Positions 34,153-48,757 of a DNA stretch of 64,000 nucleotides are shown here, piece after piece. The position numbers were made by a program, and so were the translations under genes. The stretch is from Escherichia phage 121Q. The first letter of the stretch is position 1. Every line of letters starts with the position of its first letter. The DNA is taken from sequence record NC_025447.1; one strand, written 5' to 3'. Under the pieces are notes generated by a model. That model did not search any database. It was not told where the DNA came from and saw nothing but the letters and a program-made list of their open reading frames with translations.

Positions 34153-34154
34153 TC

Positions 34155-34505: not shown

Positions 34506-34509
34506 TATT

Positions 34510-34701
34510 ATGTTGATTTATCAAGGTGATAATATTCGTGTTATGCAGCATCCCTACTTACAAATCTTTGATGTGCAGCAGTATATGGAAGGTGATGACC
34601 CAAGAACCTATGGTCGTAAGTATGATTACTTCACTGTAAAGCAGTGTAAAAATATTAACGAAGTACGACAATTAGTTCAAGAACTTCAAAACAAAGGTTG
34701 A
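34510..34701 (+). CDS. hypothetical protein
   Basis: ATG at 34510; track ORF 34456-34701. Confidence 0.35.
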   Translation: MLIYQGDNIRVMQHPYLQIFDVQQYMEGDDPRTYGRKYDYFTVKQCKNINEVRQLVQELQNKG

Positions 34702-34727
34702 CTTCGGTCAGCCTTTTTTGTTATAAT
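34695..34727 (+). promoter_or_regulatory. stem-loop terminator overlapping promoter (PeSL-like cassette)
   Basis: AAGGTTGAC-TTCG-GTCAGCCTT + T-run; TTGACT inside the stem and TATAAT 18 nt downstream. Confidence 0.55.
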
Positions 34728-34755
34728 TCTCTTAATAAATTAGAGGATTTTAATT

Positions 34756-35196
34756 ATGTATGTATATCGTTTTGAACTTAAATTTAGTTACATTGAACCT
34801 AACTTAGATCCTGCACGAACTGTAGGTCCGTTTGCACGGTATTCAACCAGATACAGTACTAAAAATGGATTTGACCGTTTGCTCATGACTACACCTTCTC
34901 AATTCCAACCTGAACCAACTGAGGATGGGATCTATTCAATCAAAAGTGGATGGGTATTTGGCTGTCAAAGTTTGAAAGATTTGTTCAGATTCTTCACTAT
35001 GGACTTAGGTAAATTGCATCGTGCTGGGTTTGCTATATCTGTATATGAAGTTCCAGACCACCATGTAGACATTGGTCGTAATCAGGTTCAGTACTATTGC
35101 GGTAGTGCTAAATTAGTTCGTATCATGTCAGTTAAGGAAGCAAAGGATGAGTTCCGACAAAGTAAAAGAGAAACACATGAGGTAATATATGGATAA
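34756..35196 (+). CDS. hypothetical protein
   Basis: ORF track. Confidence 0.45.
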   Translation: MYVYRFELKFSYIEPNLDPARTVGPFARYSTRYSTKNGFDRLLMTTPSQFQPEPTEDGIYSIKSGWVFGCQSLKDLFRFFTMDLGKLHRAGFAISVYEVPDHHVDIGRNQVQYYCGSAKLVRIMSVKEAKDEFRQSKRETHEVIYG

Positions 35197-35533
35197 AACT
35201 CAAATAGAATTAAAGAAATTTGTTTCATTCTATCTTCCTGATGACCCACGTAATTCACAAAAAGATATTGAATATTATAATATCCTATCTAAACAGTTAA
35301 TGAGAAAGTTTCAACAGTGTTTAACTATATTCAATACAGATGGAAGACGTAGATACCGAATCGTTTCAATGAATGATGAAAACGCAAATTTCTTTGATTA
35401 CGATGTGGTTTTTAGAGCATATAATGATGATCGTATAAAATTAAATTATGATCAAATTATACTTGACCTGAATGTTATATGTGTTATAATCACTCACGTA
35501 GCCGAACTTAATGGTTTTAAAGAATGGTATTGA
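35189..35533 (+). CDS. hypothetical protein
   Basis: ORF track. Confidence 0.4.
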   Translation: MDKTQIELKKFVSFYLPDDPRNSQKDIEYYNILSKQLMRKFQQCLTIFNTDGRRRYRIVSMNDENANFFDYDVVFRAYNDDRIKLNYDQIILDLNVICVIITHVAELNGFKEWY

Positions 35534-35547
35534 ATAAAGGATAACAT

Positions 35548-35814
35548 ATGAAGCTTAAATTACAATATAATGGATTTACTTTACGTAATGATACTGAATT
35601 TATTAATCGTTCTCCTGGTGCTGAACTGTTTTTACGAGAGATGAACATTCCTTTCATCATTACTACAGTGGGCGACCGTGAAGTTCTACAATACGCAGAG
35701 CATCCGATCATTGATGTTCCTTGGTACTCTGAGCATATGTACATGGATATGGCACGTCGCTACAACTGTAAGTTCGTAGTTGAAGGTGATAAAATTACAG
35801 TCGAATTTAAATAA
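35548..35814 (+). CDS. hypothetical protein
   Basis: ORF track. Confidence 0.4.
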   Translation: MKLKLQYNGFTLRNDTEFINRSPGAELFLREMNIPFIITTVGDREVLQYAEHPIIDVPWYSEHMYMDMARRYNCKFVVEGDKITVEFK

Positions 35815-35825
35815 GGTAAATTAAA

Positions 35826-36119
35826 ATGATCAGTACTTCAGTTAATGAAAGCATCGTCGCTGACGTAGAAATGGTTAAAGAATGTGCAGATGAAACTCTT
35901 CGTGATATGTACATTAATGATTTAATTACTGAATACGGTAGTCGTGGTGTACACGAATTTATTCGTTTAAGTGGAGAGTTGATGAAAAATCGAATTCGTA
36001 TGAAGCTTAACGTACATCCAAAAGCATGGGCATTTACATTAAAATACGCAGAAGATATTGTGAATTTGCGTCGAACTGAAGTATATGAACGTTTACACAA
36101 TGGTATGTTAGATAAATGA
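35826..36119 (+). CDS. hypothetical protein
   Basis: ORF track. Confidence 0.4.
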   Translation: MISTSVNESIVADVEMVKECADETLRDMYINDLITEYGSRGVHEFIRLSGELMKNRIRMKLNVHPKAWAFTLKYAEDIVNLRRTEVYERLHNGMLDK

Positions 36120-36171
36120 TTGTAAAATAGGAATTCTTAAATGAATTCCTTTTTGTTTATAAGGTATAGTA

Positions 36172-36393
36172 ATGAAATATATAGTACTTGTACTGATATT
36201 ATTCAGTACTGTTGTAAGTGCTAAACAAAAAGAATATGTTAAATGTATAAATTACGAAGAGAAATATGTTGAAACATATAAAAAAAGTATAATTAAAAAC
36301 GTTTCTATTACTGACCGAGGAACAATCATTGTACTTAAAAATGGGTTAATTATGTTATATAAACCACACGTTAAATGTGAAATTATTAATTGA
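36172..36393 (+). CDS. hypothetical secreted protein (signal peptide)
   Basis: N-terminus MKYIVLVLILFSTVVSA. Confidence 0.4.
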   Translation: MKYIVLVLILFSTVVSAKQKEYVKCINYEEKYVETYKKSIIKNVSITDRGTIIVLKNGLIMLYKPHVKCEIIN

Positions 36394-36400
36394 GGAAATT

Positions 36401-36973
36401 ATGAATCGTAAAGGTCGTTTTAAAGTATCAAAAAAGAACAAAAGTTCTAGGTTTAAACCTATTGTTTTAACAGTTAAATCTAACAAAGATTTAACTGCAC
36501 TTAGTAAAAAGATAATTTCATCTAAGATTGAAGTATCATACGTAAATTCATTAAAATATATGAATGTCAAACCACTGGACCAACTCATTTCACTTATATT
36601 TGAACGTAATGATTTTGAGATATCAGTAGATGATTATAGAGCCTATAATGCTGGTTTCATTAATGTTACTTGTAATAAAAAACTAACTGAGTTGGAAAAT
36701 TTGTCATGTATAATAAATCTAGATAAAGGTGTTGTGAAGTACCATTTTGTACATTTCACTAATATCAATAATGGAATGGGTGTACAATCCAGACCTATAG
36801 TGCCTACGTGTGATGTTACTAAATTAGCAAAGCTCAATGATGAAGAATATTTTCAAGAAAGCATTGTAACTGAGCATTTAGATGATATAATAGCTACTTA
36901 CAAAGAATGCATATGGGTGTTGAATGCTATAAAACCTAAATTGTGTTTAATGAATATTGTTCGTGATTTATGA
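36401..36973 (+). CDS. hypothetical protein, EExFFQxST-motif family
   Basis: ATG at 36401 after GAGGAAA; product contains DEEYFQESIV. Confidence 0.45.
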   Translation: MNRKGRFKVSKKNKSSRFKPIVLTVKSNKDLTALSKKIISSKIEVSYVNSLKYMNVKPLDQLISLIFERNDFEISVDDYRAYNAGFINVTCNKKLTELENLSCIINLDKGVVKYHFVHFTNINNGMGVQSRPIVPTCDVTKLAKLNDEEYFQESIVTEHLDDIIATYKECIWVLNAIKPKLCLMNIVRDL

Positions 36974-36986
36974 ATGGGGAATCGTA

Positions 36987-37430
36987 ATGAGTTGGGTAAA
37001 TGTTAATAGTATTGAACTTAACGAACAAGATATTTTTGCATTTGTAAATTTAACTAATAACACAGTACTAAAAGGGCGTTTGTTCAGTGCTAGTGATGGG
37101 TACAAATGGATCTCTTTGATGGATGATAGTGGTGTGATTTATAATGTAATGCAATTACCCCAATGGGTATATAGTAACACTGCTGACGATGTTCTTACCG
37201 CAGTTATGCGTGAGTTTGAAAAACTCCCAGGTGGTGATATCAAAAACAAAGTTTTTAATGCAGAACGTAAAAATTATACAGCACAGCAATTGGAATCCCT
37301 TGCCATTGCTGCTTATCAAGCTGCTATTAAGAAGCCAGAGTGCGTTATTCTTAAGTATGTACCAGACTTAAAACTTACGTTGGAAGACATGGATGCATTC
37401 ATTTTTACATCTGAACTTGAACAGTACTAA
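36987..37430 (+). CDS. hypothetical protein
   Basis: ATG at 36987; track ORF 36957-37430. Confidence 0.45.
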   Translation: MSWVNVNSIELNEQDIFAFVNLTNNTVLKGRLFSASDGYKWISLMDDSGVIYNVMQLPQWVYSNTADDVLTAVMREFEKLPGGDIKNKVFNAERKNYTAQQLESLAIAAYQAAIKKPECVILKYVPDLKLTLEDMDAFIFTSELEQY

Positions 37431-37545
37431 TTTAACTTTGGGACAACCATTCTTATTATGATATAATGTTTTATGTCATTCGATATAAATGACAACGGAA
37501 CTATAAATATTATAGTAAAATTTATCTCTTATAGGAGTTATAAAA

Positions 37546-37929
37546 ATGGTTGATAAATGGAATAAGAAAGATCCATCACATGATGTTGATATTTCTGGTC
37601 TAGACAATGCACATAAGCACAAGTATCTAGATTCACTAGGTCTTCTAAAACCAGACCAAAGTCTTGCACATGATCGTCCATCCCGTGAAAAAGCATTTAG
37701 CCTAGAATCACTAGGTCATGAGCTTAATCGTGTGTTTGAGGATCACCCAATCTATGTACGTGATATTATCGAGAAACTTAAAGTAACTCCTAAAGAGCAC
37801 TTTAAAGCAACTGTACACTCTGCATTCCGTGCATTACATGAATCTCTAAAGAAAACTCACAATCTTCGTAAAATTCATGATGAAATCGTGAATGCAATCG
37901 AAAGTGAAAAACATAAGTTCAAGAAGTAA
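37546..37929 (+). CDS. hypothetical protein (shares motifs with 38175-39686)
   Basis: ORF track; YLDSLGLLKPDQ and VTPKEHFKATVHSAFRAL resemble segments of the downstream 503-aa protein. Confidence 0.5.
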   Translation: MVDKWNKKDPSHDVDISGLDNAHKHKYLDSLGLLKPDQSLAHDRPSREKAFSLESLGHELNRVFEDHPIYVRDIIEKLKVTPKEHFKATVHSAFRALHESLKKTHNLRKIHDEIVNAIESEKHKFKK

Positions 37930-37935
37930 TAAAAA

Positions 37936-37968
37936 GGGTTGACTAAGGTCAGCCCTTTGTTGTATCAT
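37936..37968 (+). promoter_or_regulatory. stem-loop terminator overlapping promoter (PeSL-like cassette, variant)
   Basis: GGGTTGAC-TAAG-GTCAGCCC hairpin, then TTTGTTG and TATCAT. Confidence 0.45.
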
Positions 37969-38117
37969 AACTTCTCAATATAACTGAGGTATCATATATG
38001 CAAGGTTTAAAATTTGTAGTTGCTGCACTCATCGCCGCAGTACTGGTTGGTGGTGTATTCTATGTAGTGGATCAAAAAGTAAATCCACCTGCACAAGAAC
38101 AATCTAAGTAACAAAAT

Positions 38118-38150
38118 AAGGTTGACTTCGGTCAGCCTTTTCTTTATACT
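38118..38150 (+). promoter_or_regulatory. stem-loop terminator overlapping promoter (PeSL-like cassette)
   Basis: AAGGTTGAC-TTCG-GTCAGCCTT + T-rich; TATACT downstream. Confidence 0.5.
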
Positions 38151-38174
38151 ATAAATATAGACATAGAGAAAAAA

Positions 38175-39686
38175 ATGAAATCTATGGAGAGAAATCAAAT
38201 GCCAAGTAATTTTACTGATAAAAATGGTGGTAACATGGCTGGTCACTCTGATAAATGGAGTGAACGCAACCGCCGTCCAAATAGTTATCAAGCAGGTCAA
38301 GGTTCACGTGGGTCACGTAACCAAGGAACTGGTCTAGCTGGTAAAGCAAACGCAGAAGCAGGTGAAGTTAAGAGTACTGAGAACATGACTGAGCTAGAAA
38401 AGCTACGTTATGTTAACTCATTAGGTCTTCTTAACGCAACACAAAAACAACGCCTTGCTGATATGGAACGTGCTGAGAAAGAACAAGCAGTTCCTAAAGA
38501 AGAACCAAAAGCAGAAGTACCTAAAGCTGCTAACCCTGTTAAAGAGTTATCAGATAACTTAGGTAAGATCTTTGCTAACAAACCACAGTTGATTCAGGGT
38601 ATTGTCAAAGCACTACAGGCAGTTCCTAAAGAAGAACTCAAAGGTAAAGCACAAGCTGTACTTGATGTAATGAAAGGTAATAAGAGCACTGAACCAACTG
38701 AAGTATTCAGTACTATCATGCGTGCACTTGAAGGTACACACAAAGAAGATTCCAAAGAACCTGAACAGGGTGAAGCAAGTCTTGATGGTATTCTTAAAAC
38801 TTTTGATAATATTGGTAAAGCAGACCGTGCTAATGCCCAGCAAGTCAAGAATGTACTGGCTAAACTTGAAAACCGTTTAGAAGGTAAAGACGATAAGGTT
38901 AAGCTCGTATCAGATGCAGTTAACAGTGCACTTAAATCTTATGTACAAGGTGAGAAAAGTCGCTTCGTAACAGCTATGGATGCTGCATTCAACACTATGA
39001 AAAAGTATGAAGCAGAACATGGTGAGAAGGTAACACCAGATGGTTATCTAAAGCGTGCAGATGAAGAGGGTGCAGTTGAACAGAAAGATGTTGAGCCTGA
39101 GCAAGAAGAAATACCTGATACCGTTGATATGGATGGATACATTCATCGTCCTGAGATGGAAGAGTTTGGGTCAGATAAAGAAGGTTTTGAACATGCAATG
39201 GCAGTATATAAAGCATTAGTTAAAAATCCAGATTATGCTAACCGTTTTGTTGACGAGTTTGATAGTGCATGGAATAACTACAAAGAGAAAGGTTATGACT
39301 TCCCTGCTGAAGCTGCATTCTTTGAACTTGGTAAACTATTAGCTAAACATGGAATTGACGTTGGTTCATCTGATTCCGAAGGTATGGAAGAAGAACATCT
39401 TGAAATGACCGATAAATCAATTCATGAACTTCAAAAGCTAATGATGTGGATATCCGAGATTGGCAAAAAAGCAGGTGCTGATCGTAAAAGTATCAACAAA
39501 AACATTAGTTGGATTAAAGATAATGTTGGTAACAATGCTCGTAAACTTCAAAAGGCGTGGGCTGATTTAGTAAATGGTGCAGATGATGTTGACATTGAAT
39601 CACCAGAAGCATATGAGTATGCACTAACTACACTTGATAACTCATTCAAAGAGTACGACAGTGGTGTTGGAAAGGATAAAAAATAA
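38175..39686 (+). CDS. hypothetical acidic protein (503 aa) with internal repeats
   Basis: Long ORF flanked by terminator cassettes; repeated NSLGLL and AVPKEE/VPKEELK segments. Confidence 0.55.
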   Translation: MKSMERNQMPSNFTDKNGGNMAGHSDKWSERNRRPNSYQAGQGSRGSRNQGTGLAGKANAEAGEVKSTENMTELEKLRYVNSLGLLNATQKQRLADMERAEKEQAVPKEEPKAEVPKAANPVKELSDNLGKIFANKPQLIQGIVKALQAVPKEELKGKAQAVLDVMKGNKSTEPTEVFSTIMRALEGTHKEDSKEPEQGEASLDGILKTFDNIGKADRANAQQVKNVLAKLENRLEGKDDKVKLVSDAVNSALKSYVQGEKSRFVTAMDAAFNTMKKYEAEHGEKVTPDGYLKRADEEGAVEQKDVEPEQEEIPDTVDMDGYIHRPEMEEFGSDKEGFEHAMAVYKALVKNPDYANRFVDEFDSAWNNYKEKGYDFPAEAAFFELGKLLAKHGIDVGSSDSEGMEEEHLEMTDKSIHELQKLMMWISEIGKKAGADRKSINKNISWIKDNVGNNARKLQKAWADLVNGADDVDIESPEAYEYALTTLDNSFKEYDSGVGKDKK

Positions 39687-39693
39687 ACATTTA

Positions 39694-39730
39694 AAAGGTT
39701 GACTTCGGTCAACCTTTTTTTGTAAATATA
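39694..39730 (+). promoter_or_regulatory. stem-loop terminator overlapping promoter (PeSL-like cassette)
   Basis: AAAGGTTGAC-TTCG-GTCAACCTTT + TTTTTT. Confidence 0.55.
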
Positions 39731-39757
39731 AAAGAGGAATTAAGAAGAGGGATTACA

Positions 39758-40009
39758 ATGAAAAAATATATTATATTTGGAATTGTATTATTTTCCAGTA
39801 CTAGTTATGGTGCAGATTATCATTGCTCCGTAGCAAGACAGGATTTCAGAAATGGGGATTTCTATACCACTTCATACACAAAAGGAATAATACACGACAT
39901 CGACACAACTATTGGATTTAATGCATTTGATAACAAAGATTCATATACTTCAGGTATACTATCTGAGCGTAAGACTGATGTAATGGGAATAGAAAAAGAG
40001 TTCCGGTGA
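39758..40009 (+). CDS. hypothetical secreted protein (signal peptide)
   Basis: N-terminus MKKYIIFGIVLFSSTSYGA. Confidence 0.45.
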   Translation: MKKYIIFGIVLFSSTSYGADYHCSVARQDFRNGDFYTTSYTKGIIHDIDTTIGFNAFDNKDSYTSGILSERKTDVMGIEKEFR

Positions 40010-40019
40010 TTCAGTAGCA

Positions 40020-40343
40020 ATGTGCAATGACATTGAAAGTACTAAAACAATTTATTATAATAATGAACGTAATTATCGTTTTCATAATTTAACCACAAAT
40101 AAAAGTTTACTATTTTACAATTGTAAAGAAGTAAAACTCCCACCCGACAATAGCTGTAACCCGACGAACCCATCACCAGCACAATGTAATACTCAATCTG
40201 AACCTGATAACAATAAAAAAGACAAAGATAAAGATAAAAAAGAAGACAAAAAACCTTTAAAAGATAAAAAGAAAGATAAAAAACCTAATCCGTTTAAAAA
40301 TAATAAACCAGCACAACCCGATATGACGTGTAAAATAAAATAA
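40020..40343 (+). CDS. hypothetical Lys/Asp-rich protein
   Basis: ORF track; KDKDKDKKEDKK low-complexity tract. Confidence 0.35.
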   Translation: MCNDIESTKTIYYNNERNYRFHNLTTNKSLLFYNCKEVKLPPDNSCNPTNPSPAQCNTQSEPDNNKKDKDKDKKEDKKPLKDKKKDKKPNPFKNNKPAQPDMTCKIK

Positions 40344-40352
40344 GGATATATA

Positions 40353-40772
40353 ATGAAAAAGATTTTTTTAAGTATTATTTTAGTACTTTTTAGTTTTAAT
40401 GTATATGCAGCAGATGCTAAACAGGTTGCAAATACAGTAAAAGATGTTATAGTAGATAATGCTCCTACATTAGAGGAAATTGGGGTAAAAACTTGTGATA
40501 TTGTAATATATAATTTAGTTAATGATGAACGAGTTATGTTGAATACGTATGAACAAGTAGTCCCATTGGTTGAATCTGGTGATGCTTTTAGCTTTACATA
40601 TAAAGTTAAATTAACAGGAGGGGTTGAAGTTAATCTTGACATTGATACCGCTTCAGTACTAAAAGATAAACTAGGATATGTGTTCAATCGTATTCGTGAA
40701 GAAGGTCATCTTAAGTATGTTTATGAAAGTAAAATACTAAAACGTGCAATAGTTATAGAAAACTGTAAATGA
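40353..40772 (+). CDS. hypothetical secreted protein (signal peptide)
   Basis: N-terminus MKKIFLSIILVLFSFNVYAA. Confidence 0.45.
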   Translation: MKKIFLSIILVLFSFNVYAADAKQVANTVKDVIVDNAPTLEEIGVKTCDIVIYNLVNDERVMLNTYEQVVPLVESGDAFSFTYKVKLTGGVEVNLDIDTASVLKDKLGYVFNRIREEGHLKYVYESKILKRAIVIENCK

Positions 40773-40779
40773 TAATAAA

Positions 40780-40813
40780 AGGGTTGACTTCGGTCAGCCT
40801 TTTTTGTTATGAT
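40780..40813 (+). promoter_or_regulatory. stem-loop terminator overlapping promoter (PeSL-like cassette)
   Basis: GGGTTGAC-TTCG-GTCAGCC + TTTTTT; TATGAT downstream. Confidence 0.5.
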
Positions 40814-40841
40814 GTTGATATTAACTACAGAGGATAAAGTA

Positions 40842-41483
40842 ATGACTAAGCAAGAAATATTCAAAACTTTAATTGACATTTTGCGTCCATCAAAAACTCG
40901 TTGTGCGATGGAGTTTGATATTCCTTATGCTGAACGCGTAATCTTTCCACAAGTTAAAGCTGCTGGACTTACTTTGCTTGGAATGGGGATGTACTCTGTA
41001 GTAGTTGAACATAAAAACTATCCTGGGCGTGCATTTAAAGTAACCACTTCACGCTGGGATGGTTTTCGTGCTTATGCAAAGTACTGCATTGAAAACGCAG
41101 GAACCAAGTTTCTTCCAGTGATCTACAGTGCCAACGAACAAGGAAACTTTGGATGGTATGAGATGGACAAGTACTATCCTATAATTAAACAAAAAAATAA
41201 TTATGATGACTTTGTTAGTACTAAAATTGGAGATTTATATTCTTATGCACATGCTGGTCAGTACGCTACTTCAGTGAATGATATGCGTGGTAATTCTGAA
41301 GAGATTGCTATTGCAACGGTCGCTGCTAACATCATGAAAGAGTTTCACGGGCGTTTTGTACCAGACATTCATTCAAGTAATGTAATGATGGATAAAGATG
41401 GGAATGTATTCATTACTGATCCTCTTTCGTGTGATGTGCGTAGAGAAATACCAATTACTGAAGAAGATCCAGTTTTTTATTGA
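40842..41483 (+). CDS. hypothetical protein
   Basis: ATG at 40842 after AGAGGA; track ORF 40809-41483. Confidence 0.45.
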   Translation: MTKQEIFKTLIDILRPSKTRCAMEFDIPYAERVIFPQVKAAGLTLLGMGMYSVVVEHKNYPGRAFKVTTSRWDGFRAYAKYCIENAGTKFLPVIYSANEQGNFGWYEMDKYYPIIKQKNNYDDFVSTKIGDLYSYAHAGQYATSVNDMRGNSEEIAIATVAANIMKEFHGRFVPDIHSSNVMMDKDGNVFITDPLSCDVRREIPITEEDPVFY

Positions 41484-41544: not shown

Positions 41545-41826
41545 ATGCGTTCATTTGAAAACTTAATAGGTAAGCATCTTTTATCTGAAATTGATGCAGA
41601 CGTTAAAGAATTATCCAAATCAAAAAGTTACATTCATTTGGATGAACTGTTTATTAAGTACGGTGAGATTGGTTTTAAGTCATTATTTGTTTTTACTATG
41701 AAAGTACATAGTTTAAAGTACTTCGATTTGAGTACTAAAGATGGTGAACCGAATCTATATTACATGTATTACCTTAAGAACAAAGATGAAGCTAATACAT
41801 TACTCTCTGAATATATATTGGGGTAA
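41545..41826 (+). CDS. hypothetical protein
   Basis: ORF track. Confidence 0.4.
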   Translation: MRSFENLIGKHLLSEIDADVKELSKSKSYIHLDELFIKYGEIGFKSLFVFTMKVHSLKYFDLSTKDGEPNLYYMYYLKNKDEANTLLSEYILG

Positions 41827-41828
41827 AA

Positions 41829-42167
41829 ATGGAACAATATTTTGAATTAATAAACAAAGTATCATTTTATGTAGTATCTTTGGTTTGGGTGTATTATATG
41901 TTTTGCTATATTATTGCATTCTTCCGATATACTACTTTATATGAACGTATCTACTATGATGCCCCAATTTCATTCTTGATGTTTTGTGCCTGTACGTGGG
42001 GAATATTAGAAGTACTGATATGTGGGTATAGTACTGATGAATTAAATCTGGTATCGGTGTTGACTGGGTTTTCATTTGTTGTTATGATAGCTGCCGTTCC
42101 AGTATGGTTGTTCTTTGGACTAGTTCATCGCATTGATATATGGCGTTCTAATATCCCTGAAAAGTAA
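41829..42167 (+). CDS. small polytopic membrane protein, paralog family (C-terminal RxNIPEK-type motif)
   Basis: Hydrophobic segments; ends HRIDIWRSNIPEK. Confidence 0.45.
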   Translation: MEQYFELINKVSFYVVSLVWVYYMFCYIIAFFRYTTLYERIYYDAPISFLMFCACTWGILEVLICGYSTDELNLVSVLTGFSFVVMIAAVPVWLFFGLVHRIDIWRSNIPEK

Positions 42168-42176
42168 GGATTGGTA

Positions 42177-42518
42177 ATGATTTATTACACTAACATGTTT
42201 GCCTATGCTGTTGCTTGCATTTACATTGTTTACTTCTTATTCGGTGGAGTACTGTGCTTCTTTAAGTACAAAACGTTGTTCAACCGAATGTACCCAAATC
42301 ATCCAATTGTAGTTGTACTTTTGATTCTTTCAGTTTCTCAAATAATCGTTGAAACTACAATGGGTATCAGTAGTGTACATTATAGTTTTGGTACTATAGT
42401 AATTATTACTATGCTTATTGCATACATTTTAGTACTTGGATATGGTATCTTTGGTAATATTGGTATGAAAATGTATCATCGAATTAAAACATTACGTGAT
42501 AATCTACCGGAGCGTTGA
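42177..42518 (+). CDS. small polytopic membrane protein, paralog family
   Basis: ATG at 42177; ends HRIKTLRDNLPER. Confidence 0.45.
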   Translation: MIYYTNMFAYAVACIYIVYFLFGGVLCFFKYKTLFNRMYPNHPIVVVLLILSVSQIIVETTMGISSVHYSFGTIVIITMLIAYILVLGYGIFGNIGMKMYHRIKTLRDNLPER

Positions 42519-42519
42519 T

Positions 42520-42864
42520 ATGTATAATTTGAACCTAATCTCATATATTATAACAACACTGTTTACATTCTATGCCTTTGTTGGTATAATCCTACTGTAC
42601 TTTAAATTTTATAAAGTGTTTAACCGTTTCTATCCTTCAATGGAGAATGAGTTTTTCTTTGTGTTGTACGTAGGTTACACATTAATGGCTACATGTTTCA
42701 CTGTAGCCGATGGTGTCATCGGCATTAAAACTGATTCCCCAAATGGTAGTACGCTGGTTGCATTTATTCTTACTGGATTCCTTGCAACTTATATTGCCTT
42801 CATTACAACATGGTCAGTGGTTGAATTTCTCTTGCGACTACGAAAGAATATGCCGAATCGATAG
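42520..42864 (+). CDS. small polytopic membrane protein, paralog family
   Basis: ATG at 42520; ends LLRLRKNMPNR. Confidence 0.45.
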   Translation: MYNLNLISYIITTLFTFYAFVGIILLYFKFYKVFNRFYPSMENEFFFVLYVGYTLMATCFTVADGVIGIKTDSPNGSTLVAFILTGFLATYIAFITTWSVVEFLLRLRKNMPNR

Positions 42865-42873
42865 GAGACATAT

Positions 42874-43128
42874 ATGTTTGCGTTGCGTAATAAAAACACT
42901 AAAGAATTATTATGTATTGATACCGTATGGGATTGTGCGGGTTCAACTACAGTTCTTGAAGAAGGAACTGGATATTGCGTGTTTGTTGTACATGATAGGA
43001 ATGAACTCGAATTATTACTTGCTGAGTTCAATGCTGGTGGTAATCCTAACAGTACTGAATACCCTGAGATTATCAATCCAGCACCTCCAGGTTCATATGA
43101 AATCCTACCACTATGGGTGTTGAAATAA
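42874..43128 (+). CDS. hypothetical protein
   Basis: ORF track. Confidence 0.4.
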   Translation: MFALRNKNTKELLCIDTVWDCAGSTTVLEEGTGYCVFVVHDRNELELLLAEFNAGGNPNSTEYPEIINPAPPGSYEILPLWVLK

Positions 43129-43508
43129 TGCGACAAATGTACAAAGTAACCGAGCTAAACAAGCGTCTGGTTAAACAATCTATGTTTGAGGATAAAGAGT
43201 CTTACTATAACTTTAAACGTGCTGTAGAGGCTGCTATCCACATTCAGAAGCTTAAAGAACGTGGTTGTATTATTCTGGAAAATGGTTCGGAAGTTGTAAC
43301 GGATGACTTTAGTGTAGCGTTTGATGTTTCACCTGATGGGACGCTATCAATGCCCCGCTTAGGAACTGGAAACATGACTGTTTGGGTTGGCTTCACTATG
43401 GGGAATGTACCTGGTACTGTGTACGTAGATGATGCGGAATTGAAAGACAGTTTCAAAAACTTATCTTATCTTGAACCACAATACGCACATGAAATGAATT
43501 TATTTTGA
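43126..43508 (+). CDS. hypothetical protein
   Basis: ATG at 43126 immediately after upstream stop. Confidence 0.45.
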
Positions 43509-43509
43509 G

Positions 43510-43537
43510 TTGACAAACACATTCAGTACTGTATAAT
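43510..43537 (+). promoter_or_regulatory. sigma70-like early promoter (TTGACA - 16 nt - TATAAT)
   Basis: Spacer contains CAGTACTG. Confidence 0.5.
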
Positions 43538-43584
43538 GCTTATCAAGGGGATGAACTTCTCATCCCTACAATCGAGGAACTACC

Positions 43585-44139
43585 ATGATTACTTTTAAGA
43601 AAACTGCTAACCACATCCATGAAATCTACATTAACGGTCATAAAGCTGGCCTTCTTCGTTTACTCGCCCATCACCCTGATGCTACCGTATCTGATAATGA
43701 ACCTAAAGATTGGCGTGTCTTTTTCTTTGGAAAGTACAGTGATTTTCAAGTATCAAACCTGAAGAACATTCGTTCAGTATGCACGTTAACTGAAATTAAA
43801 GAAAAGTTAGCACAAGCATTGAAAACTAATCCAGATGGTGTTCTTCCACCTGATAACTTTGTAGAGAAAGGTTATGCCTTAGCTCATTTCAAAGATGGTA
43901 CTATTCAATCTATCAGTACTGAATATGAATATCATTGGACTGAGTACTTCACTTATGGTTCGAGTAATACATTGATGGATTCACGTAGTAAATTGGAAGA
44001 AGTACTGACTCGTATGAATGAACGCGAGCGTCAGTTATATGACAAACCAGAAATGTGGAGTTCAACTTACATTGACCGTATTGACTATGTTATTATGACT
44101 CCAATCTTTGACACTGCTTACTATGATTCTTTGAAATAA
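43585..44139 (+). CDS. hypothetical protein
   Basis: ORF track. Confidence 0.5.
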   Translation: MITFKKTANHIHEIYINGHKAGLLRLLAHHPDATVSDNEPKDWRVFFFGKYSDFQVSNLKNIRSVCTLTEIKEKLAQALKTNPDGVLPPDNFVEKGYALAHFKDGTIQSISTEYEYHWTEYFTYGSSNTLMDSRSKLEEVLTRMNERERQLYDKPEMWSSTYIDRIDYVIMTPIFDTAYYDSLK

Positions 44140-44366
44140 GGATAACTTATATGAAACTACGTACTCGTAATCGACTGATGGATGCACTGTACCATGAACA
44201 GCTTTCACTGAATGAAGTGAAGCGTCAGTTAATGTACACATATCAGTTTCCCGCTCGCATTGCAAAACAACGTGCTAAAGAATTGCTGAAAGAAGCAATC
44301 GAGTACTGGGAATCTGATTCGTACTAATATTACGTGATATGTCACGTTAATTAAGTGAGGCGATAA

Positions 44367-44618
44367 ATGAAAATATTATTAGTTCTAATACTACTAATAG
44401 TTTTACCATTTACTTTAGTATCCCCTGGACTTGCATGGAATGTATTTGTGTACTTAGTATGTACTATTGTAGTAAATGGTATCTTGTTCTTAGTTCTATT
44501 CATAAATGGAATAGGACACGGTGGAGGATGGACCAGTACTGCTGATATTGTACATAAAACCACTATGTCTTTATTTGTAATGTGGAATTTGTTCTGGACT
44601 TGGTTTGTGTTCTTCTAA
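44367..44618 (+). CDS. small membrane protein
   Basis: ORF track; hydrophobic throughout. Confidence 0.4.
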   Translation: MKILLVLILLIVLPFTLVSPGLAWNVFVYLVCTIVVNGILFLVLFINGIGHGGGWTSTADIVHKTTMSLFVMWNLFWTWFVFF

Positions 44619-44626
44619 TTAAAAAT

Positions 44627-44998
44627 ATGAATATAGATTTGAAAGGTGCAACACGAACTGTTATCCTCATTGGGGAATATGCTATCAAGATTCCAACCTT
44701 TAAAAGTTGGAAGCTATTCTTAACAGGGATGATAGCTAACCTCAATGAACGTTCGTGGATGCAGTACTCCAATCGTAGTGATAGTAGTATCTGTCCTACG
44801 TTGTGGTCATCATGTACTGGACTAGTAACTGTACAGAAACGTTGTAAGCCAGTGCAACATAGGGGTTTATTTTGGGTGGAGTTGTGTGCATTAGCATCTA
44901 AATCAGAGTTGAGTACTGACTTCTTCTATTCAGATGCGAAGCCAGAAAACTTTGGGTATCTGGGTGGTAAGTTAGTTAAACTTGATTATGGAGATTAA
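44627..44998 (+). CDS. hypothetical protein
   Basis: ATG at 44627; track ORF 44582-44998. Confidence 0.4.
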   Translation: MNIDLKGATRTVILIGEYAIKIPTFKSWKLFLTGMIANLNERSWMQYSNRSDSSICPTLWSSCTGLVTVQKRCKPVQHRGLFWVELCALASKSELSTDFFYSDAKPENFGYLGGKLVKLDYGD

Positions 44999-44999
44999 T

Positions 45000-45269
45000 A
45001 TGTACGCACTGTATAATAAAGAAAAGAAACGATTTGCTAAGGTTGAAATTTCGATTGATACATTTGATATGTTGGAGTACTGTATTGTAACTGACCTATA
45101 TGCTAACTTGTATTACGTTCTTGATGACGTATCAGTACTGCAACGATTGCTTGAGAATTCCAAAAGTCAATGCCAGGGCATCCATGATGGTTCATCTTAT
45201 GAAACACCTGAGTGTTCCTACGGCTATCTGGACGGGTATGAGATTGTGAAGTTGGGGATCATTGAATAA
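45000..45269 (+). CDS. hypothetical protein
   Basis: ATG at 45000; track ORF 44982-45269. Confidence 0.4.
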   Translation: MYALYNKEKKRFAKVEISIDTFDMLEYCIVTDLYANLYYVLDDVSVLQRLLENSKSQCQGIHDGSSYETPECSYGYLDGYEIVKLGIIE

Positions 45270-45273
45270 AGAA

Positions 45274-45309
45274 AAGGGTTGACTTCGGTCAGCCCTTTTT
45301 GCTATAATT
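45274..45309 (+). promoter_or_regulatory. stem-loop terminator overlapping promoter (PeSL-like cassette, canonical copy)
   Basis: AAGGGTTGAC-TTCG-GTCAGCCCTT + TTTT; TTGACT in stem, TATAAT 18 nt downstream; near-identical to copies at 46561 and 48723. Confidence 0.6.
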
Positions 45310-45336
45310 ATTTCATCAAGACGAGAGGATGAATAC

Positions 45337-45852
45337 ATGACACGCATTAACTTAGTACACGTTAAAGAACTTGCTGACCAACATCTGATGGCTGAATATC
45401 GTGAACTCCCACGTGTATTTGGTGCTGTACAAAAACACGTTCAAGCACGTAAGCGTGTACGTGATTTCAAAATTAATAGTACTTATCTGTTAGGTTCAGG
45501 TCATGTGACATTCTTTTACGACAAGTTATTGTACTTACAGAAGCGTCATATTGATATTGTCAACGAATGTCTGCGTCGTGGTATGAAGATTCAAAACACT
45601 GAAGTAAACGACATTAGCGGCTTCCCTGCTGAGTTTTGTAATGACTACGTACCAACGGAGTCAGAGATTAAAATGTCTCGTGATCGTTTGATTGAGAAGC
45701 TCCAGATGAAGCCTACGTGGTATAAGTTTACTGATGTTGAATGTCCACAGTACGTTAAAGATATGCAGAACGTAAGTAGTAAGAACGAATCTAGTACTGA
45801 TATGTTCGACGAAATTGAAGAACAAATCAAAGATGAAATGAATAATTATTAA
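45337..45852 (+). CDS. denV: endonuclease V (pyrimidine-dimer DNA glycosylase) homolog
   Basis: N-terminal about 130 aa closely match phage T4 DenV as recalled (MTRINL...[21 protein letters not shown]...KRVRDFKI...[10 protein letters not shown]...PTWYK); extra acidic C-terminal tail; not alignment-verified. Confidence 0.85.
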
Positions 45853-45856
45853 AGGA

Positions 45857-45877
45857 AAGGGTTGACTTCGGTTACAC
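45857..45877 (+). promoter_or_regulatory. degenerate copy of the stem-loop cassette
   Basis: GGGTTGACTTCGGTTAC: 5' half conserved, 3' half diverged. Confidence 0.3.
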
Positions 45878-45890
45878 AAAGGAACATAAC

Positions 45891-46085
45891 ATGTTATTAG
45901 TATATTCAACGCGTTTCTGGATTTCTTTTATTGTACTATCGCTAATCGGCTTCGGTTTGAGTATACTCTTTTCGTGGGATGAATTGGGTACATGGTATTA
46001 TGAAGTCCCGTGGTACATGAAGATAGCTCCTTGTTATGCGGCATTGTTCGTGTCATTCCTTATTGTTGTCTTCAGCGAGGATTAG
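45891..46085 (+). CDS. small membrane protein
   Basis: ORF track; two hydrophobic segments. Confidence 0.4.
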   Translation: MLLVYSTRFWISFIVLSLIGFGLSILFSWDELGTWYYEVPWYMKIAPCYAALFVSFLIVVFSED

Positions 46086-46191
46086 TTGATGTAGTATGTG
46101 CTACACCAAAGTATTTGGATATTTTAGATATAAACATTGACACCTGTTATATCTTTCTGTATTATGTACATCACCAAATGAGGAATACAAC

Positions 46192-46551
46192 ATGGCATCT
46201 TTAAGTGAAATCGCAGAATACAACCCACTAACAATCTCAACAATTCAACGTACAAAAACTTTTTATTTCCGTCCTGCTGATGGATGGAAACGTGGAATGA
46301 ATGGTGACTATCGAGTACTGGAAGATTCACTAATCGAGCGTATCAACTCTGAACTACAGAAGTATGAAGGTGTTAAAGTTGTGCGTTCAACTTCTCGTTA
46401 TTTTGAGTACTACATTGAGTCTTCAACTGTAAATGAAAACTCATCATTCTCGGTGGACAACACTGATATTCTTCGTAATGCAGTTGGTCTGTTATGCAAC
46501 ATTGCAGAAGAAATGGGCTTAACTATTACTACTATGAGTGAATTAGAATAA
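46192..46551 (+). CDS. hypothetical protein
   Basis: ORF track. Confidence 0.45.
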   Translation: MASLSEIAEYNPLTISTIQRTKTFYFRPADGWKRGMNGDYRVLEDSLIERINSELQKYEGVKVVRSTSRYFEYYIESSTVNENSSFSVDNTDILRNAVGLLCNIAEEMGLTITTMSELE

Positions 46552-46560
46552 CATAAAGGG

Positions 46561-46596
46561 TTGACTTCGGTCAGCCCTTTTTGCTATAATTATTTC
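46561..46596 (+). promoter_or_regulatory. stem-loop terminator overlapping promoter (PeSL-like cassette, canonical copy)
   Basis: AAGGGTTGACTTCGGTCAGCCCTTTTTGCTATAATTATTTCATCAA. Confidence 0.6.
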
Positions 46597-46616
46597 ATCA
46601 ACACAAGAGGTAACAA

Positions 46617-46856
46617 ATGAAACTATCTTTTATACGATTAGCTGAATTCTTCGGTACTGATATCATTACTTTACAACAAATTGCAGACAATACTTCATTA
46701 AGTATACAAGAAGTACTTGACTTAGATGTAATTCAGTGCGATAATACTTCAATCGATTTCAAAGAAGGTCTTGTCGAAAAAGATAAGATTCAGGCTAAGA
46801 TTAATGGTGCTGGACGGGTTCAGTACTGGAAAGGTATATTATCAAATTCAATTTGA
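46617..46856 (+). CDS. hypothetical protein
   Basis: ORF track. Confidence 0.4.
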   Translation: MKLSFIRLAEFFGTDIITLQQIADNTSLSIQEVLDLDVIQCDNTSIDFKEGLVEKDKIQAKINGAGRVQYWKGILSNSI

Positions 46857-46899
46857 AATTTTTTGTTATTCATCATATGATAATGAATGGGAACCATAA

Positions 46900-48363
46900 A
46901 TGTATAAAGTATATCGTTCAATTGAAGTTGAAAATGCATTAAGCTTGGCAAAAAGTGAAGAAGCATTTAGAATTTCGTTATTCATTCTTCGTGAAAAGCA
47001 TCCACAATTGCCAATTCCTGATTCATTTGATCAATTGGAGCAGGATACTAATACAGAATGTGATGAAAGTCTGTTGGGATTAATTCGAAATCCAAAGACC
47101 AAAGCTAAGTTCTATCTTAAAATTTGTAAAATTTGTGCAAATGATGTTCAATTGCATGGTTTGGGTGTGTATATTATTGCACAATCGTCATATTTGAATT
47201 CAATAATTCCATGTGGTTGTAGTGAGATACCAAAATGGACTCGTTATCAATATATTATTCGAATAGAAAGAAAAATTTCAAAAACTGGAAAGAAATTATT
47301 ATCAATACCAACTGGTATAATTAAAAGTAATACATATAAACCAACTCTTGTATGTGAACATCACCCAGATGAACTCATGAACAGTGCAACTATAAATGGT
47401 ATTTTATTTGGTTCGAATGGTACAAATGATGGATGTGTTAAATGTGGGAATGAAAGAAAGAAACAGTATCATCGTGAAAGTAATAACGGATTGGAAAATC
47501 ACATTAACGAAATAATGAATACTGGTAAGTTTCATCCAAAGACCACGTTCAAGCGTAGTGATACAGTTAATGATTATGGGAGATTTAGTAAACTTGTATA
47601 CTCATGTCCAATTTGTGCAAACGATGAATATACAAAAAATGGTTTATGTACTGGTGAATTTGAGCAAGAAATGCACACACTCAAACAGGGGCATTTAAGT
47701 TGTCGCTGTACTGGCGGGTTTCGTTGGACAAAAGAACAGCGTGAATATCAAATTAAAAAAGAATTATGTAATCGCTCAACTGATGAAGTGATGTTTACAT
47801 TTATTGGCTGGGACGGTGAATACACTAATTCCCGTAGTGTGTTTTTATATTCACGTAGTGATAGTTCAATTCAACAAAAAATTAATATTGCAGATTTTTT
47901 CAGTTTTGAATATGGTTTTTCAATGTATAATGAGTACGGGTTTAAGAAAAACAAACCTACACGTTCATATATGAACGTTGATCAAACAAACGAATCGGAT
48001 AAATTCGGAATAACCCAACAGGGTAACAGTATCAAACCCCGACTTAAAAAAATTAACAAATCTTTTTTAGAAGAGTATGGTGTTGATAATTTTTGGACTA
48101 ATGTATTAGTTATTTTTTTTCACACCGAAGAAGGGGGATTTTTGGCATCGGAGTTGGAAACACAAGTCCATACTGTTGCATTGTGTGGAAAACCACATAA
48201 AAATATTGGCTATTATAAAAGAGGTGATGGTTATACTGAAACATACAACAACATACATCGTCAAAATGTAATTGAAGTAATAAAACAATTCTTAGCCAAA
48301 CATGAAGGTGAGTACATTATTGAACGTGATATTAATGGTATTTTTGGTGAAGTAATTTTATAA
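46900..48363 (+). CDS. Cys-rich hypothetical protein (487 aa), possible zinc-binding nuclease-like protein
   Basis: Repeated Cys pairs (CKICAND, CGCSEIP, CVKCGNE, CPICANDEY, CRCTGG); no catalytic motif identified. Confidence 0.5.
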   Translation: MYKVYRSIEVENALSLAKSEEAFRISLFILREKHPQLPIPDSFDQLEQDTNTECDESLLGLIRNPKTKAKFYLKICKICANDVQLHGLGVYIIAQSSYLNSIIPCGCSEIPKWTRYQYIIRIERKISKTGKKLLSIPTGIIKSNTYKPTLVCEHHPDELMNSATINGILFGSNGTNDGCVKCGNERKKQYHRESNNGLENHINEIMNTGKFHPKTTFKRSDTVNDYGRFSKLVYSCPICANDEYTKNGLCTGEFEQEMHTLKQGHLSCRCTGGFRWTKEQREYQIKKELCNRSTDEVMFTFIGWDGEYTNSRSVFLYSRSDSSIQQKINIADFFSFEYGFSMYNEYGFKKNKPTRSYMNVDQTNESDKFGITQQGNSIKPRLKKINKSFLEEYGVDNFWTNVLVIFFHTEEGGFLASELETQVHTVALCGKPHKNIGYYKRGDGYTETYNNIHRQNVIEVIKQFLAKHEGEYIIERDINGIFGEVIL

Positions 48364-48383
48364 AATAAAAGAGGTTAATTAAA

Positions 48384-48710
48384 ATGAAAAAGTTAATGTT
48401 AGTTATGTTAATGTGTTTATCAACAACAGTGAATGCAAAAAATGAATCATCAACTACTTGTAAATCTTCAAAAACTGATACGATTTATCAACTGTATTTG
48501 GATGTTTCAACAAAAACTGCTAAAATTGATGGAAAGAAATTTATGTTCGAAAGTCAAGAAGTTTTTAAAGACGGGAGTGGTTCATATACTATTTTTTCAA
48601 ATGATAAATTAAATCAAAAATTAAAAGTTTTTGTTATAAAACCAAATAAGATAAAATATATAATTACCTATAATGGTAAAAATATTGATATGGGTAATTG
48701 TGTGTATTAA
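48384..48710 (+). CDS. hypothetical secreted protein (signal peptide)
   Basis: N-terminus MKKLMLVMLMCLSTTVNA. Confidence 0.45.
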   Translation: MKKLMLVMLMCLSTTVNAKNESSTTCKSSKTDTIYQLYLDVSTKTAKIDGKKFMFESQEVFKDGSGSYTIFSNDKLNQKLKVFVIKPNKIKYIITYNGKNIDMGNCVY

Positions 48711-48722
48711 ATATGTTTATAA

Positions 48723-48757
48723 AAAGGGTTGACTTCGGTCAGCCCTTTTTGCTATAA
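48723..48757 (+). promoter_or_regulatory. stem-loop terminator overlapping promoter (PeSL-like cassette, canonical copy)
   Basis: AAAAAGGGTTGACTTCGGTCAGCCCTTTTTGCTATAATTATTTCATCAA. Confidence 0.6.

Follow-up and report, generated by a model that had tools for sequence, protein, structure and literature searches.

The window (the whole analysed stretch of 64,000 nucleotides, 64 kb) belongs to Escherichia phage 121Q, an Asteriusvirus of the PBECO4/G17 group and a Rak2-like jumbo phage, and is 96–99% identical to phages G17 and CRJP21. About 14 kb of it, with mostly hypothetical genes, carries a family of short intergenic repeats. When searched with the motif GGTTGACTTCGGTCAGCC and up to three mismatches, the window gave nine matches, all on the + strand and spanning 34696–48744 (starts 34696, 37937, 38120, 39697, 40782, 45277, 45860, 46559, and 48727), while 100 shuffled sequences gave none, and none is expected by chance. 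A repeat finder recovered the same family, and a structure-based scan of the 64-kb window revealed no copies beyond these nine. Eight copies are full, in the order A-tract, GC stem with a TTGACT −35 hexamer in its 5' arm, tetraloop, T-run, and −10 hexamer; the ninth, at 45860, is a half copy. The nine elements of about 35 bp described in an earlier note are therefore present as eight full copies and one half copy, with a length of about 47 nt. The identity over about 45 bp that it had claimed for three of them holds over 47 nt (45273–45319, 46555–46601, and 48723–48769; matches 45277, 46559, and 48727). The features, in window positions, are as follows.

34689–34727, + strand: cassette c1; hairpin AAAGGTTGAC-TTCG-GTCAGCCTTT with T-run; TTGACT-18-TATAAT, TG before the −10; predicted unit 34756–37929; the TGA of the upstream ORF (34699–34701) falls within the −35 hexamer
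37929–37968, + strand: cassette c2; TAAG loop; TTGACT-18-TATCAT; predicted terminator of the unit ending in a 127-aa virion-protein gene; predicted target a 37-aa membrane-peptide ORF (37998–38111)
38112–38157, + strand: cassette c3; TTGACT-17-TATACT; upstream of the 503-aa gene; late-promoter motif TATAAATA at 38150–38157, overlapping the end of the −10
39689–39728, + strand: cassette c4; stem a perfect palindrome (GTCAACC); precedes three small ORFs, of which two begin like signal peptides; predicted to be mostly a terminator, as it has no good −10
40774–40813, + strand: cassette c5; TTGACT-18-TATGAT, TG before the −10; predicted targets a kinase-annotated gene and 11 others
45269–45319, + strand: cassette c6; TTGACT-18-TATAAT with TG; 47-nt stretch identical to c8 and c9; predicted target denV (45337–45852)
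45850–45877, + strand: half cassette; left flank, 5' arm, and loop 96% identical to c6
46553–46601, + strand: cassette c8; core identical to c6 and c9; predicted targets 79-aa, 487-aa (CapR-domain), and 108-aa ORFs
46841–48720: variable gene slot adjoining the 5' edge of c9
48720–48769, + strand: cassette c9; core identical to c6 and c8; predicted target an AAA ATPase gene (48787–49557)
26232–26262, + strand: terminator-only relative, AAAAAAGGTTGGC-TTAT-GCCAACC-T7, no −10; after a sigma-70-family gene
36129–36155, + strand: plain hairpin terminator with no promoter, within the c1–c2 unit; ARNOLD terminator of −9.5 in the G17 record
37502–37509, + strand: late-promoter motif TATAAATA ahead of the 127-aa gene, whose product the records of relatives list as a virion structural protein

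The hairpins of the full copies have 9–13 bp and folding energies of −12.4 to −19.0 kcal/mol (n = 8). The earlier note had given all nine a TTCG loop and a T-run; the T-run lies directly 3' of the hairpin in all eight full copies, but the loop is TTCG in seven of them and TAAG at 37937. The half copy at 45860 lacks the 3' arm, the T-run, and the −10, and its folding energy is only −1.7 kcal/mol. It precedes a 64-aa ORF, and both are missing in phages PBECO4, slurp01, and SD-15. On the transcribed strand each full copy reads as a GC-rich hairpin followed by a U-run, the form of an intrinsic terminator, and the G17 record has ARNOLD terminators (−13.5 to −17.0) annotated at the cassettes. The T-run can partly pair with the A-tract, which leaves a shorter free U-tract.

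In every copy, three to six A in a row stand before GG(G)TTGAC. The −10 hexamer announced about 18 nt after TTGACT was found, with at least 5/6 matches to TATAAT and at 17–18 nt, in seven of the eight full copies (TATAAT in four, and TATCAT, TATGAT, and TATACT), c4 being the exception; at a background of 2.3% per position the binomial P is 2.5e-11. In five copies the −10 is preceded by TG. The 18-nt spacer is one above the optimum. The cassettes lie 0–16 nt past the upstream stop codon, and in seven of eight copies an ATG follows 56–59 nt from the start of the −35, with a GAGG-type ribosome-binding site between. The + strand of the wider region has about 24 further TTGACA-N17-TATAAT sites; its − strand has none. 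By these sequence features the cassettes are a hairpin-bearing subclass of the TTGACA/TATAAT-type predicted promoters of the region, and the wider region looks early.

The cassettes would split the 34.7–48.8-kb block into eight insulated units. The bracketing of single genes, as supposed in the earlier note, was not borne out, as the cassette-bounded units hold 8, 1, 1, 3, 12, 3, and 3 genes. Its reading of the 503-aa gene, downstream of cassette c3, as an early unit needs amending. Records of relatives list the product as a virion structural protein, and since the conserved TATAAATA motif overlaps the −10 of c3, the gene is probably late or dual-timed rather than simply early.

Cassette positions are conserved in eight Asteriusvirus genomes. 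Phage RaK2 has 13 copies in 24 kb, some of which precede denV and the homologous ATPase gene; the loops differ among these copies (TTCG, GAAA, TTAT, ATAA, and TTAG), while −35 and −10 are constant. Another reading takes the elements as terminators only, with the −35/−10 likeness arising incidentally from AT-richness of the genome and a stem that happens to contain TTGAC. The records of G17 and UE-S1 annotate terminators alone, c4 has no good −10, and the related hairpin at 26232 has none at all. This hairpin lies outside the 34–49 kb range of the earlier note. The −10, however, stands outside the hairpin and is nevertheless kept at 17–18 nt in seven of eight copies, and at the same spacing also in RaK2, nt-1, KVP40, and phage A9. 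Moreover, TTGAC is invariant where a −10 exists but has drifted to TTGGC, with a compensating change, at 26232, and the distance to ribosome-binding site and ATG is constant. A terminator-only function is therefore quite improbable.

Over 33 aligned copies, drawn from four genera, pairing holds in 92.9% of stem cells, a value barely above that of shuffled sequences. One outer-stem position, the sole pair changed on both sides, has compensatory GC/AU/UA changes; with so little variation in the stem, covariation is weak. The homologue of the 26232 hairpin in UE-S1 (GGGTTGAC-TTAG-GTCAACCC) carries a compensatory change from A-T to G-C. At one stem position, 23 of the 33 copies have a U-G wobble; this and other G-U pairs can form in RNA of the + strand only. 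A functional reading of the conserved wobble is that it keeps the opposite strand free of a mirror-image TTGAC. These data bear on the idea that the inverted repeat is not an RNA hairpin at all but a DNA operator, at which a dimeric phage regulator shuts the promoters off. A palindrome-like repeat overlapping the −35 is in the classic operator position, and the phage encodes its own sigma-70-family factor nearby. The arms are asymmetric, though, and the wobble is a C-A mismatch on the opposite strand; loop sequence and length vary freely, the outer stem covaries, and the T-run is invariably 3' of the stem. The element also occurs across unrelated families and hosts, which are unlikely to have one regulator in common, and an operator is a most improbable explanation.

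Gene content between cassettes was compared among relatives, as the earlier note had advised. Two cassette-bounded modules (183 bp and 2168 bp) are precisely absent from UE-S1, which keeps one chimeric cassette at each site, with the left flank of c2 and the right of c3, and the left of c8 and the right of c9. In Ec-M-J, content is swapped exactly between c2 and c3. Against six relatives, 32 unique structural (indel) junctions were surveyed, and seven were associated with a cassette (within 12 nt) versus 1.3 expected (P = 2.6e-4). Most larger intergenic gaps are occupied by cassettes, so this enrichment may partly reflect tolerance of indels.

The cassettes could accordingly be regulatory only, with junctions clustering there because indels would survive at gene boundaries only and because free-standing homing endonuclease genes would favour the ends of transcription units, just ahead of a terminator, as landing sites. 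The 24 of 32 junctions away from cassettes fit this, as does the precise whole-ORF deletion at 44330–44619, which used microhomology of 10–15 nt instead of a cassette. HNH- or endonuclease-annotated genes figure in three events at cassette edges; genes so annotated make up the insertions at 45265–45270 and in the slot 46841–48720, which adjoin only the 5' edge of one cassette and are not flanked by two. On the other side stand the two chimeric cassettes of UE-S1, with the crossover inside the repeat as homologous recombination predicts, the Ec-M-J replacement exactly from c2 to c3, and the mini-circles detected for comparable elements of RB49 and phi1 (PMC2839356). We regard a purely regulatory role as a real but minor possibility. 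The earlier proposal of module shuffling via cassettes is directly supported by the UE-S1 chimeras and by the excess of junctions, with the qualification that most junctions lie away from cassettes and that three events at cassette edges concern HNH or endonuclease-like genes.

More probably (at about three chances in four), each element is a composite cassette of the PeSL type (promoter-early-stem-loop), terminator and promoter in one, that also acts as a substrate of homologous recombination. A single sequence of about 47 nt would then have two readings, as RNA terminator and as DNA promoter. In RNA arriving from upstream, the A-tract, GGGUUGAC-UUCG-GUCAGCCC, and the U-run would form an intrinsic terminator and close the upstream unit a few bases past its stop codon. 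As DNA, the same bases would be a near-consensus promoter for host sigma-70 with the A-tract immediately before the −35; TTGACT lies in the 5' arm, and the 3' arm and T-run would serve as the 17–18-nt spacer, often ending in TG, before TATAAT. Transcription would start about 7 nt past the −10, at the A of CATCAAC, so the new transcript would lack the hairpin and would continue through the ribosome-binding site to the ATG about 57 nt from the −35. Being direct repeats of 40–50 nt, the cassettes would be recombination substrates, and recombination between them may delete or insert whole units. The anatomy, its conservation across genera, and the chimeric cassettes of a relative are observed; that transcripts actually end at the hairpins, that host sigma-70 initiates at the promoters, that this happens early, and by which pathway the copies recombine is what we infer.

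Near-identical cassettes were found in Rak2-like jumbo phages of Escherichia, Klebsiella, Pectobacterium, Cronobacter, Serratia, and Yersinia, in T4-like phages of Vibrio and Aeromonas, and in the SPO1-like Brochothrix phage A9 of a Gram-positive host, which shares 37 identical nt with one RaK2 copy. The CATCAAC leader is common to the 121Q copies, KVP40, and nt-1. With the element recurring in phage families so far apart, one may ask whether it was transferred or arose by convergence. Both fit, as promoter or terminator function constrains nearly all of its bases and the conserved wobble, too, has a functional reading; that the cassette is a horizontally mobile regulatory module crossing unrelated families of large virulent phages, as opposed to having independent origins, seems rather unlikely. 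PeSL-type cassettes are hereby extended from T4-like phages to Rak2-like jumbo phages (Asteriusvirus and Alcyoneusvirus), for which public records annotate terminators alone and genome papers are silent on the overlap. The cassettes give a ready map of predicted transcription units for a block of host-takeover and repair genes and a concrete, testable path for gain and loss of small genes in 350-kb genomes, and the compact dual-use sequence may serve phage engineering as a short insulator part.

The likeness to PeSLs suggested earlier is right as to layout, shared with a published PeSL-rich segment of phage nt-1, but not as to the carrier, which is a Rak2-like Asteriusvirus and not a T4-type phage. 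A T4-like carrier belongs to the description of PeSLs, which reflects where they were first found, not their mechanism. Of the other features, these are present: a sigma-70-like promoter, an upstream AT tract, a stem-loop, an intergenic site ending in a Shine-Dalgarno sequence and start codon, clustering in a variable small-gene region, breakpoints at cassettes, and a degraded half copy. The design being the same as in T4-like phages, a known kind of element is extended here and no new kind revealed.

The PeSLs of the Vibrio phages nt-1 and KVP40 (Comeau, Arbiol and Krisch 2014, PMC4122927) are 71–76% identical to c9 and have a common order with the 121Q cassettes over about 70 nt: A3–4, G3, −35 in the 5' arm, short loop, C3, and T-run spacer, then −10 at 17–18 nt, CATCAAC, GAGG, and ATG. 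The nt-1 copy 4955 has the TTCG loop of most 121Q copies, and in these phages too the elements cluster among small unknown ORFs, beside indels, and include degraded half copies. They differ in the −35 (TTGACT in 121Q, TTGCAC/TTGCTT in nt-1/KVP40), the spacer (mostly 18 nt versus 17 nt), and the carrier (a Rak2-like jumbo coliphage versus Straboviridae); c3 of 121Q bears a late-promoter motif, whereas nt-1 has middle-promoter variants (PmSLs).

For the PeSLs of the coliphages RB49 and phi1, promoter and terminator activity was measured by lacZ fusions, and mini-circles from PeSL-PeSL recombination were detected experimentally (Arbiol et al. 2010, PMC2839356). Like the 121Q cassettes, they hold a strong sigma-70-like promoter, an AT-rich upstream part, and a stem-loop within a single intergenic cassette, at whose end stand the ribosome-binding site and the start codon; they too flank ORFans and have crossovers inside. 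The RB49/phi1 stem is polyG/polyC and is mostly placed in the interval from −35 to −10 or across the −10, whereas the −35 itself forms the stem in 121Q.

Phage CBB is Rak2-like, as is 121Q, and its predicted RpoD-like early promoters with UP-like element (Buttimer et al. 2017, PMC5259590) are likewise A-rich, with TTGAC and TATAAT, and concentrated among short early ORFs. That paper handles promoters and terminators separately and mentions neither their overlap nor a role in indels. Most of the listed CBB promoters have no hairpin, but Porf_41 (AAAAAGGAGTTGACAACAGTTGGCTCCTTTGCTATACT) has the hairpin layout.

Nine matches to GGTTGACTTCGGTCAGCC with up to three mismatches were found in the 64-kb window, where shuffles predict none, and the same cassette family was recovered by a repeat finder. 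The nine-copy terminator-promoter element described in an earlier note is real and was correctly recognised. The copies located by the motif search start at the following positions.

34696, plus strand, cassette c1
37937, plus strand, cassette c2
38120, plus strand, cassette c3
39697, plus strand, cassette c4
40782, plus strand, cassette c5
45277, plus strand, cassette c6
45860, plus strand, half copy
46559, plus strand, cassette c8
48727, plus strand, cassette c9

Eight copies form hairpins of 9–13 bp (−12.4 to −19.0 kcal/mol), each followed by a T-run, with the loop TTCG in seven and TAAG in one. A folding hairpin had been ascribed to all nine, but the copy at 45860 is truncated: it retains just the 5′ arm with its left flank and the loop, is 96% identical to c6 over that part, diverges beyond it, and cannot fold (−1.7 kcal/mol). 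The identity claimed for c6, c8 and c9 holds over a common stretch of 47 nt. No further cassettes were found elsewhere in the 64-kb window by a structure-based scan for hairpins that have a −35-like pentamer in one arm and a T-rich stretch directly after them. The sole Rfam matches on the window are tRNAs, with no overlap with the cassettes.

Every copy starts 0–16 nt past a stop codon, and in c1 the TGA stop falls within the −35 hexamer. Counted from the −35 start, the following ATG lies at 56–59 nt in seven of the eight copies and has a GAGG-type ribosome-binding site before it. TTGACT is carried in the 5′ arm, and the expected TATAAT about 18 nt downstream is present as a hexamer with at least 5/6 identity at 17–18 nt in seven of eight copies (background 2.3% per position, P = 2.5e-11), but a usable −10 is missing from c4. 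TG precedes the −10 in five copies. The A-tract and GGG directly 5′ of the −35 presumably resemble a proximal UP-element subsite. In this layout the terminator would span promoter positions of about −45 to −12, and transcription would start about 7 nt past the −10, so the hairpin would be excluded from the new transcript. The records of the related Asteriusvirus genomes G17 and UE-S1 annotate these elements as terminators only.

To judge the hairpin, 33 copies from the window, Ec-M-J, RaK2, nt-1, and KVP40 were aligned. In this alignment 92.9% of stem cells are paired, and one stem position has compensatory GC, AU, and UA pairs. Covariation was dropped as proof of the hairpin, as only one pair changed on both sides and the pairing percentage is barely above that of shuffles; with a stem that hardly varies, being constrained by the −35, the signal stays weak. 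The hairpin was judged from wobble pairs, loop variation, and a terminator-only relative. A U-G wobble occupies one stem position in 23 of the 33 copies, and further G-U pairs are present. If the inverted repeat were a protein operator, it would act as a DNA palindrome, but these wobble positions pair in plus-strand RNA only and the RaK2 loops differ (TTCG, GAAA, TTAT, ATAA, TTAG, TTTG). We infer that the wobble G also abolishes the mirror-image TTGAC on the opposite strand. The terminator-only relative is the following.

26232–26262, hairpin GGTTGGC-TTAT-GCCAACC-T7, after the sigma-70-family gene, no −10

In this hairpin TTGGC stands in place of TTGAC, and relative to UE-S1 (GGGTTGAC-TTAG-GTCAACCC) the pair shows a compensatory change from A-T to G-C. 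A terminator alone, as in the G17 and UE-S1 annotations, would not readily account for −35 and −10 remaining constant in RaK2 while loops vary, nor for the drift of TTGAC where the −10 is absent. Wobbles, loop variation, and the 26232 hairpin favour a plus-strand RNA terminator joined to a promoter that is probably itself under selection. At 26290–26540, 3′ of the sigma-factor gene, there is a noncoding stretch highly conserved with UE-S1 (a repeat_region is annotated nearby) and with no Rfam match, which may be a structured RNA.

The window belongs to Asteriusvirus (PBECO4/121Q/G17 group), being 99.2% identical to CRJP21 over the block and 96.5% identical to G17. The phage is a Rak2-like jumbo phage and, strictly speaking, not T4-type. 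About 24 further TTGACA-N17-TATAAT sites without hairpin are on the plus strand of 81–50590, and none on its minus strand. The restriction of plain promoters to the plus strand suggests that 81–50590 is one large early region read by host sigma-70. Within this predicted set, the cassettes are a terminator-bearing subclass of early promoters, their −35 being TTGACT and their spacer mostly 18 nt long. By the G17 gene calls, the cassettes delimit units of 8, 1, 1, 3, 12, 3, and 3 genes (the last count from window ORFs), and the unit after c9 continues for about ten genes. Insulation of each bracketed gene thus fits some single-gene units, but not those with up to 12 genes. Pfam confirmed denV (Pyr_excise, 5.9e-15) and the AAA ATPase, and identified two CapR domains in a 487-aa ORF.

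Two other repeats were observed in the window. A duplicated promoter, agtacTTGACTaaatagttcagtactgaTATAAT, at 10666 and 11425 has an AGTAC/GTACT inverted repeat over the −35 and spacer, and adjoins a tRNA cluster (tRNAs at 9491, 11464, 11563, 11728, and 13896). At 56575, 57865, 60310, and 63591, in a minus-strand region, a repeat of about 120 nt recurs where paralogous genes end; the annotation of these genes is RCC1-like or DNA-condensation protein.

TATAAATA, the T4 late-promoter motif, has been put forward in the same role for the related phage CBB (PMC5259590). The window strongly avoids this motif: 3 sites are present versus about 13 expected. The plus-strand sites are as follows.

37502–37509, plus strand, TATAAATA site before the 127-aa gene
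38150–38157, plus strand, TATAAATA site overlapping the −10 of c3, before the 503-aa gene

Each is just 5′ of one of the two genes annotated in PBECO4 and Ec-M-J as virion structural proteins. Exactly these two sites are present in the regions fetched from each of G17, UE-S1, Ec-M-J, UB, and SD-15, and UB retains the second despite the loss of c3. With the motif overlapping its −10 before the 503-aa gene, c3 is a composite of three predicted parts: terminator, early-type promoter, and late promoter. The 503-aa gene, previously listed as an early unit, is by this predicted composite not simply one. Cassettes c2–c4 appear to insulate two putative late genes within the early region.

Comparison of cassette-bounded gene content among relatives, as had been proposed, revealed fixed cassette positions and variable content in eight Asteriusvirus genomes, slurp01 and CRJP21 being compared by cassette spacing and annotation only. 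UE-S1 has a single cassette at the c2/c3 site, with the left flank of c2 and the right flank of c3, and the 37-aa ORF module is absent; its single cassette at the c8/c9 site likewise joins the left flank of c8 to the right flank of c9, without the 2168-bp three-ORF module. At the two sites the BLAST segments share 44 and 71 nt, which crossovers within the repeat would be expected to produce. Exactly between c2 and c3, Ec-M-J has 735 bp versus 138 bp in the window; in UB, where c3 is lost, the insert at this place is 834 bp long. In both genomes, c6 is separated from the preceding ORF's stop codon by a 404-bp HNH endonuclease gene (insertion site at window 45265–45270; comparison locus L011, 12323–12728), and Ec-M-J has a 196-bp ORF inserted at the 5′ edge of c8. 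The content of the slot 46841–48720 at the 5′ edge of c9 changes with nearly every relative: the 487-aa ORF and a 108-aa secreted-looking ORF in the window and UB, genes annotated as HNH or endonuclease in G17, Ec-M-J, and PBECO4, other ORFs in CRJP21 and slurp01, and none in SD-15.

The 51 junctions from six relatives reduce to 32 unique positions. Seven of these are at most 12 nt from the cassette zone, which makes up 4.1% of the sequence (expected 1.3, P = 2.6e-4), but most of the 32 are away from cassettes, cassettes fill the main intergenic gaps, and some cassette-edge events are due to endonuclease-like genes. An eighth junction falls in the stretch common to c8 and c9. Module shuffling through the cassettes has comparative support for part of the changes, including the two chimeric UE-S1 cassettes. 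The UE-S1 deletion of the c4–c5 module comes within 9 nt of c5 at its right junction, but its left junction falls in a diverged gene end, 31 nt ahead of c4, and the event was not counted as cassette-to-cassette. An 83-aa membrane-like ORF (44330–44619) is precisely missing in UB, SD-15, and PBECO4 with a junction overlap of 5–15 nt and no cassette, and this is therefore a microhomology deletion. Over 34000–49600 the window is a mosaic, CRJP21-like (99.2%) up to 46841; 45261–49600, including the c8–c9 module where CRJP21 differs, matches UB at 97.5%.

BLAST with a 53-nt cassette recognized 743 places in 181 phage records, including Asteriusvirus (6–10 places per genome), RaK2, K64-1, CBB, GAP32, Serratia BF, Yersinia fHe-Yen9, the KVP40 group, Aeromonas 65 and CC2, and several 150-kb myoviruses; diverged copies are undercounted (RaK2, 9 versus 13 found in 24 kb). 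One of the 13 RaK2 copies is before denV and one before the homologous ATPase gene. In the 50 kb of UE-S1 examined, copies are confined to this block and one terminator-only site. An exact 26-mer is present in 13 IMG/VR stretches, mostly 345–378-kb contigs, and also in Aeromonas phage 65 and Brochothrix phage A9. The latter, with a Gram-positive host, has the full composite including the −10 (A9 locus L029, 2267–2330: AAGGGTTGACTTCGGTCAGCCCTTTTGTTATTAT, then AAGGAGG, then ATG), sharing 37 identical nt with a RaK2 copy (locus L019, 5511). This cross-family recurrence could reflect either transfer or convergence.

Promoter-early stem-loops (PeSLs) combine a strong sigma-70-like promoter, preceded by AT-rich sequence, with a stem-loop, and also include the next gene's ribosome-binding site and start codon; they cluster in hyperplastic regions and at indels (PMC2839356; PMC4122927). 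Those of RB49 and phi1 were demonstrated to act as promoters and terminators and to form mini-circles (PMC2839356). In the searchable literature, PeSLs are discussed for T4-like phages and cyanophages only, nothing usable was found on Asteriusvirus transcriptomics or promoter analysis, and the cassette motif had no match as a literal string. Promoters and terminators go unmentioned in the recent Asteriusvirus papers on Sharanji and fEgEco12; hairpin-bearing promoters are listed in the CBB paper, with the overlap with the terminator unremarked (PMC5259590). The PeSL consensus is TTGYVH for the −35 and TAWWAT for the −10 (PMC4122927). In the 51–56 kb segment of nt-1 singled out by the 2014 paper (PMC4122927), one cassette reads AAAAGGGTTGCTTCGGCAGCCCTTTTTTGTTATTCTACATTTATCAAC...GAGAGG...ATG and a second GAAAAGGGTTGCACTATGCAGCCCTTTTTAGTATTATATCTACATCG..., so TTGYVH lies inside the 5′ arm and TAWWAT 17 nt on, the same layout as in the window. 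The KVP40 cassette is AAAAGGGTTGACTGCGGTCAGCCCTTTCGCGTATTATAGCTTCATCAAC. These nt-1 and KVP40 copies are 71–76% identical to c9 over about 72 nt. The resemblance to PeSLs proposed at the outset is confirmed: every sequence-level feature of the PeSL is present in the window cassettes, and on these they belong to the PeSL family, specifically the nt-1/KVP40 type, with the corresponding functions predicted. To the known kind they add the putative late-promoter composite at c3 and a design that reaches beyond T4-like phages.
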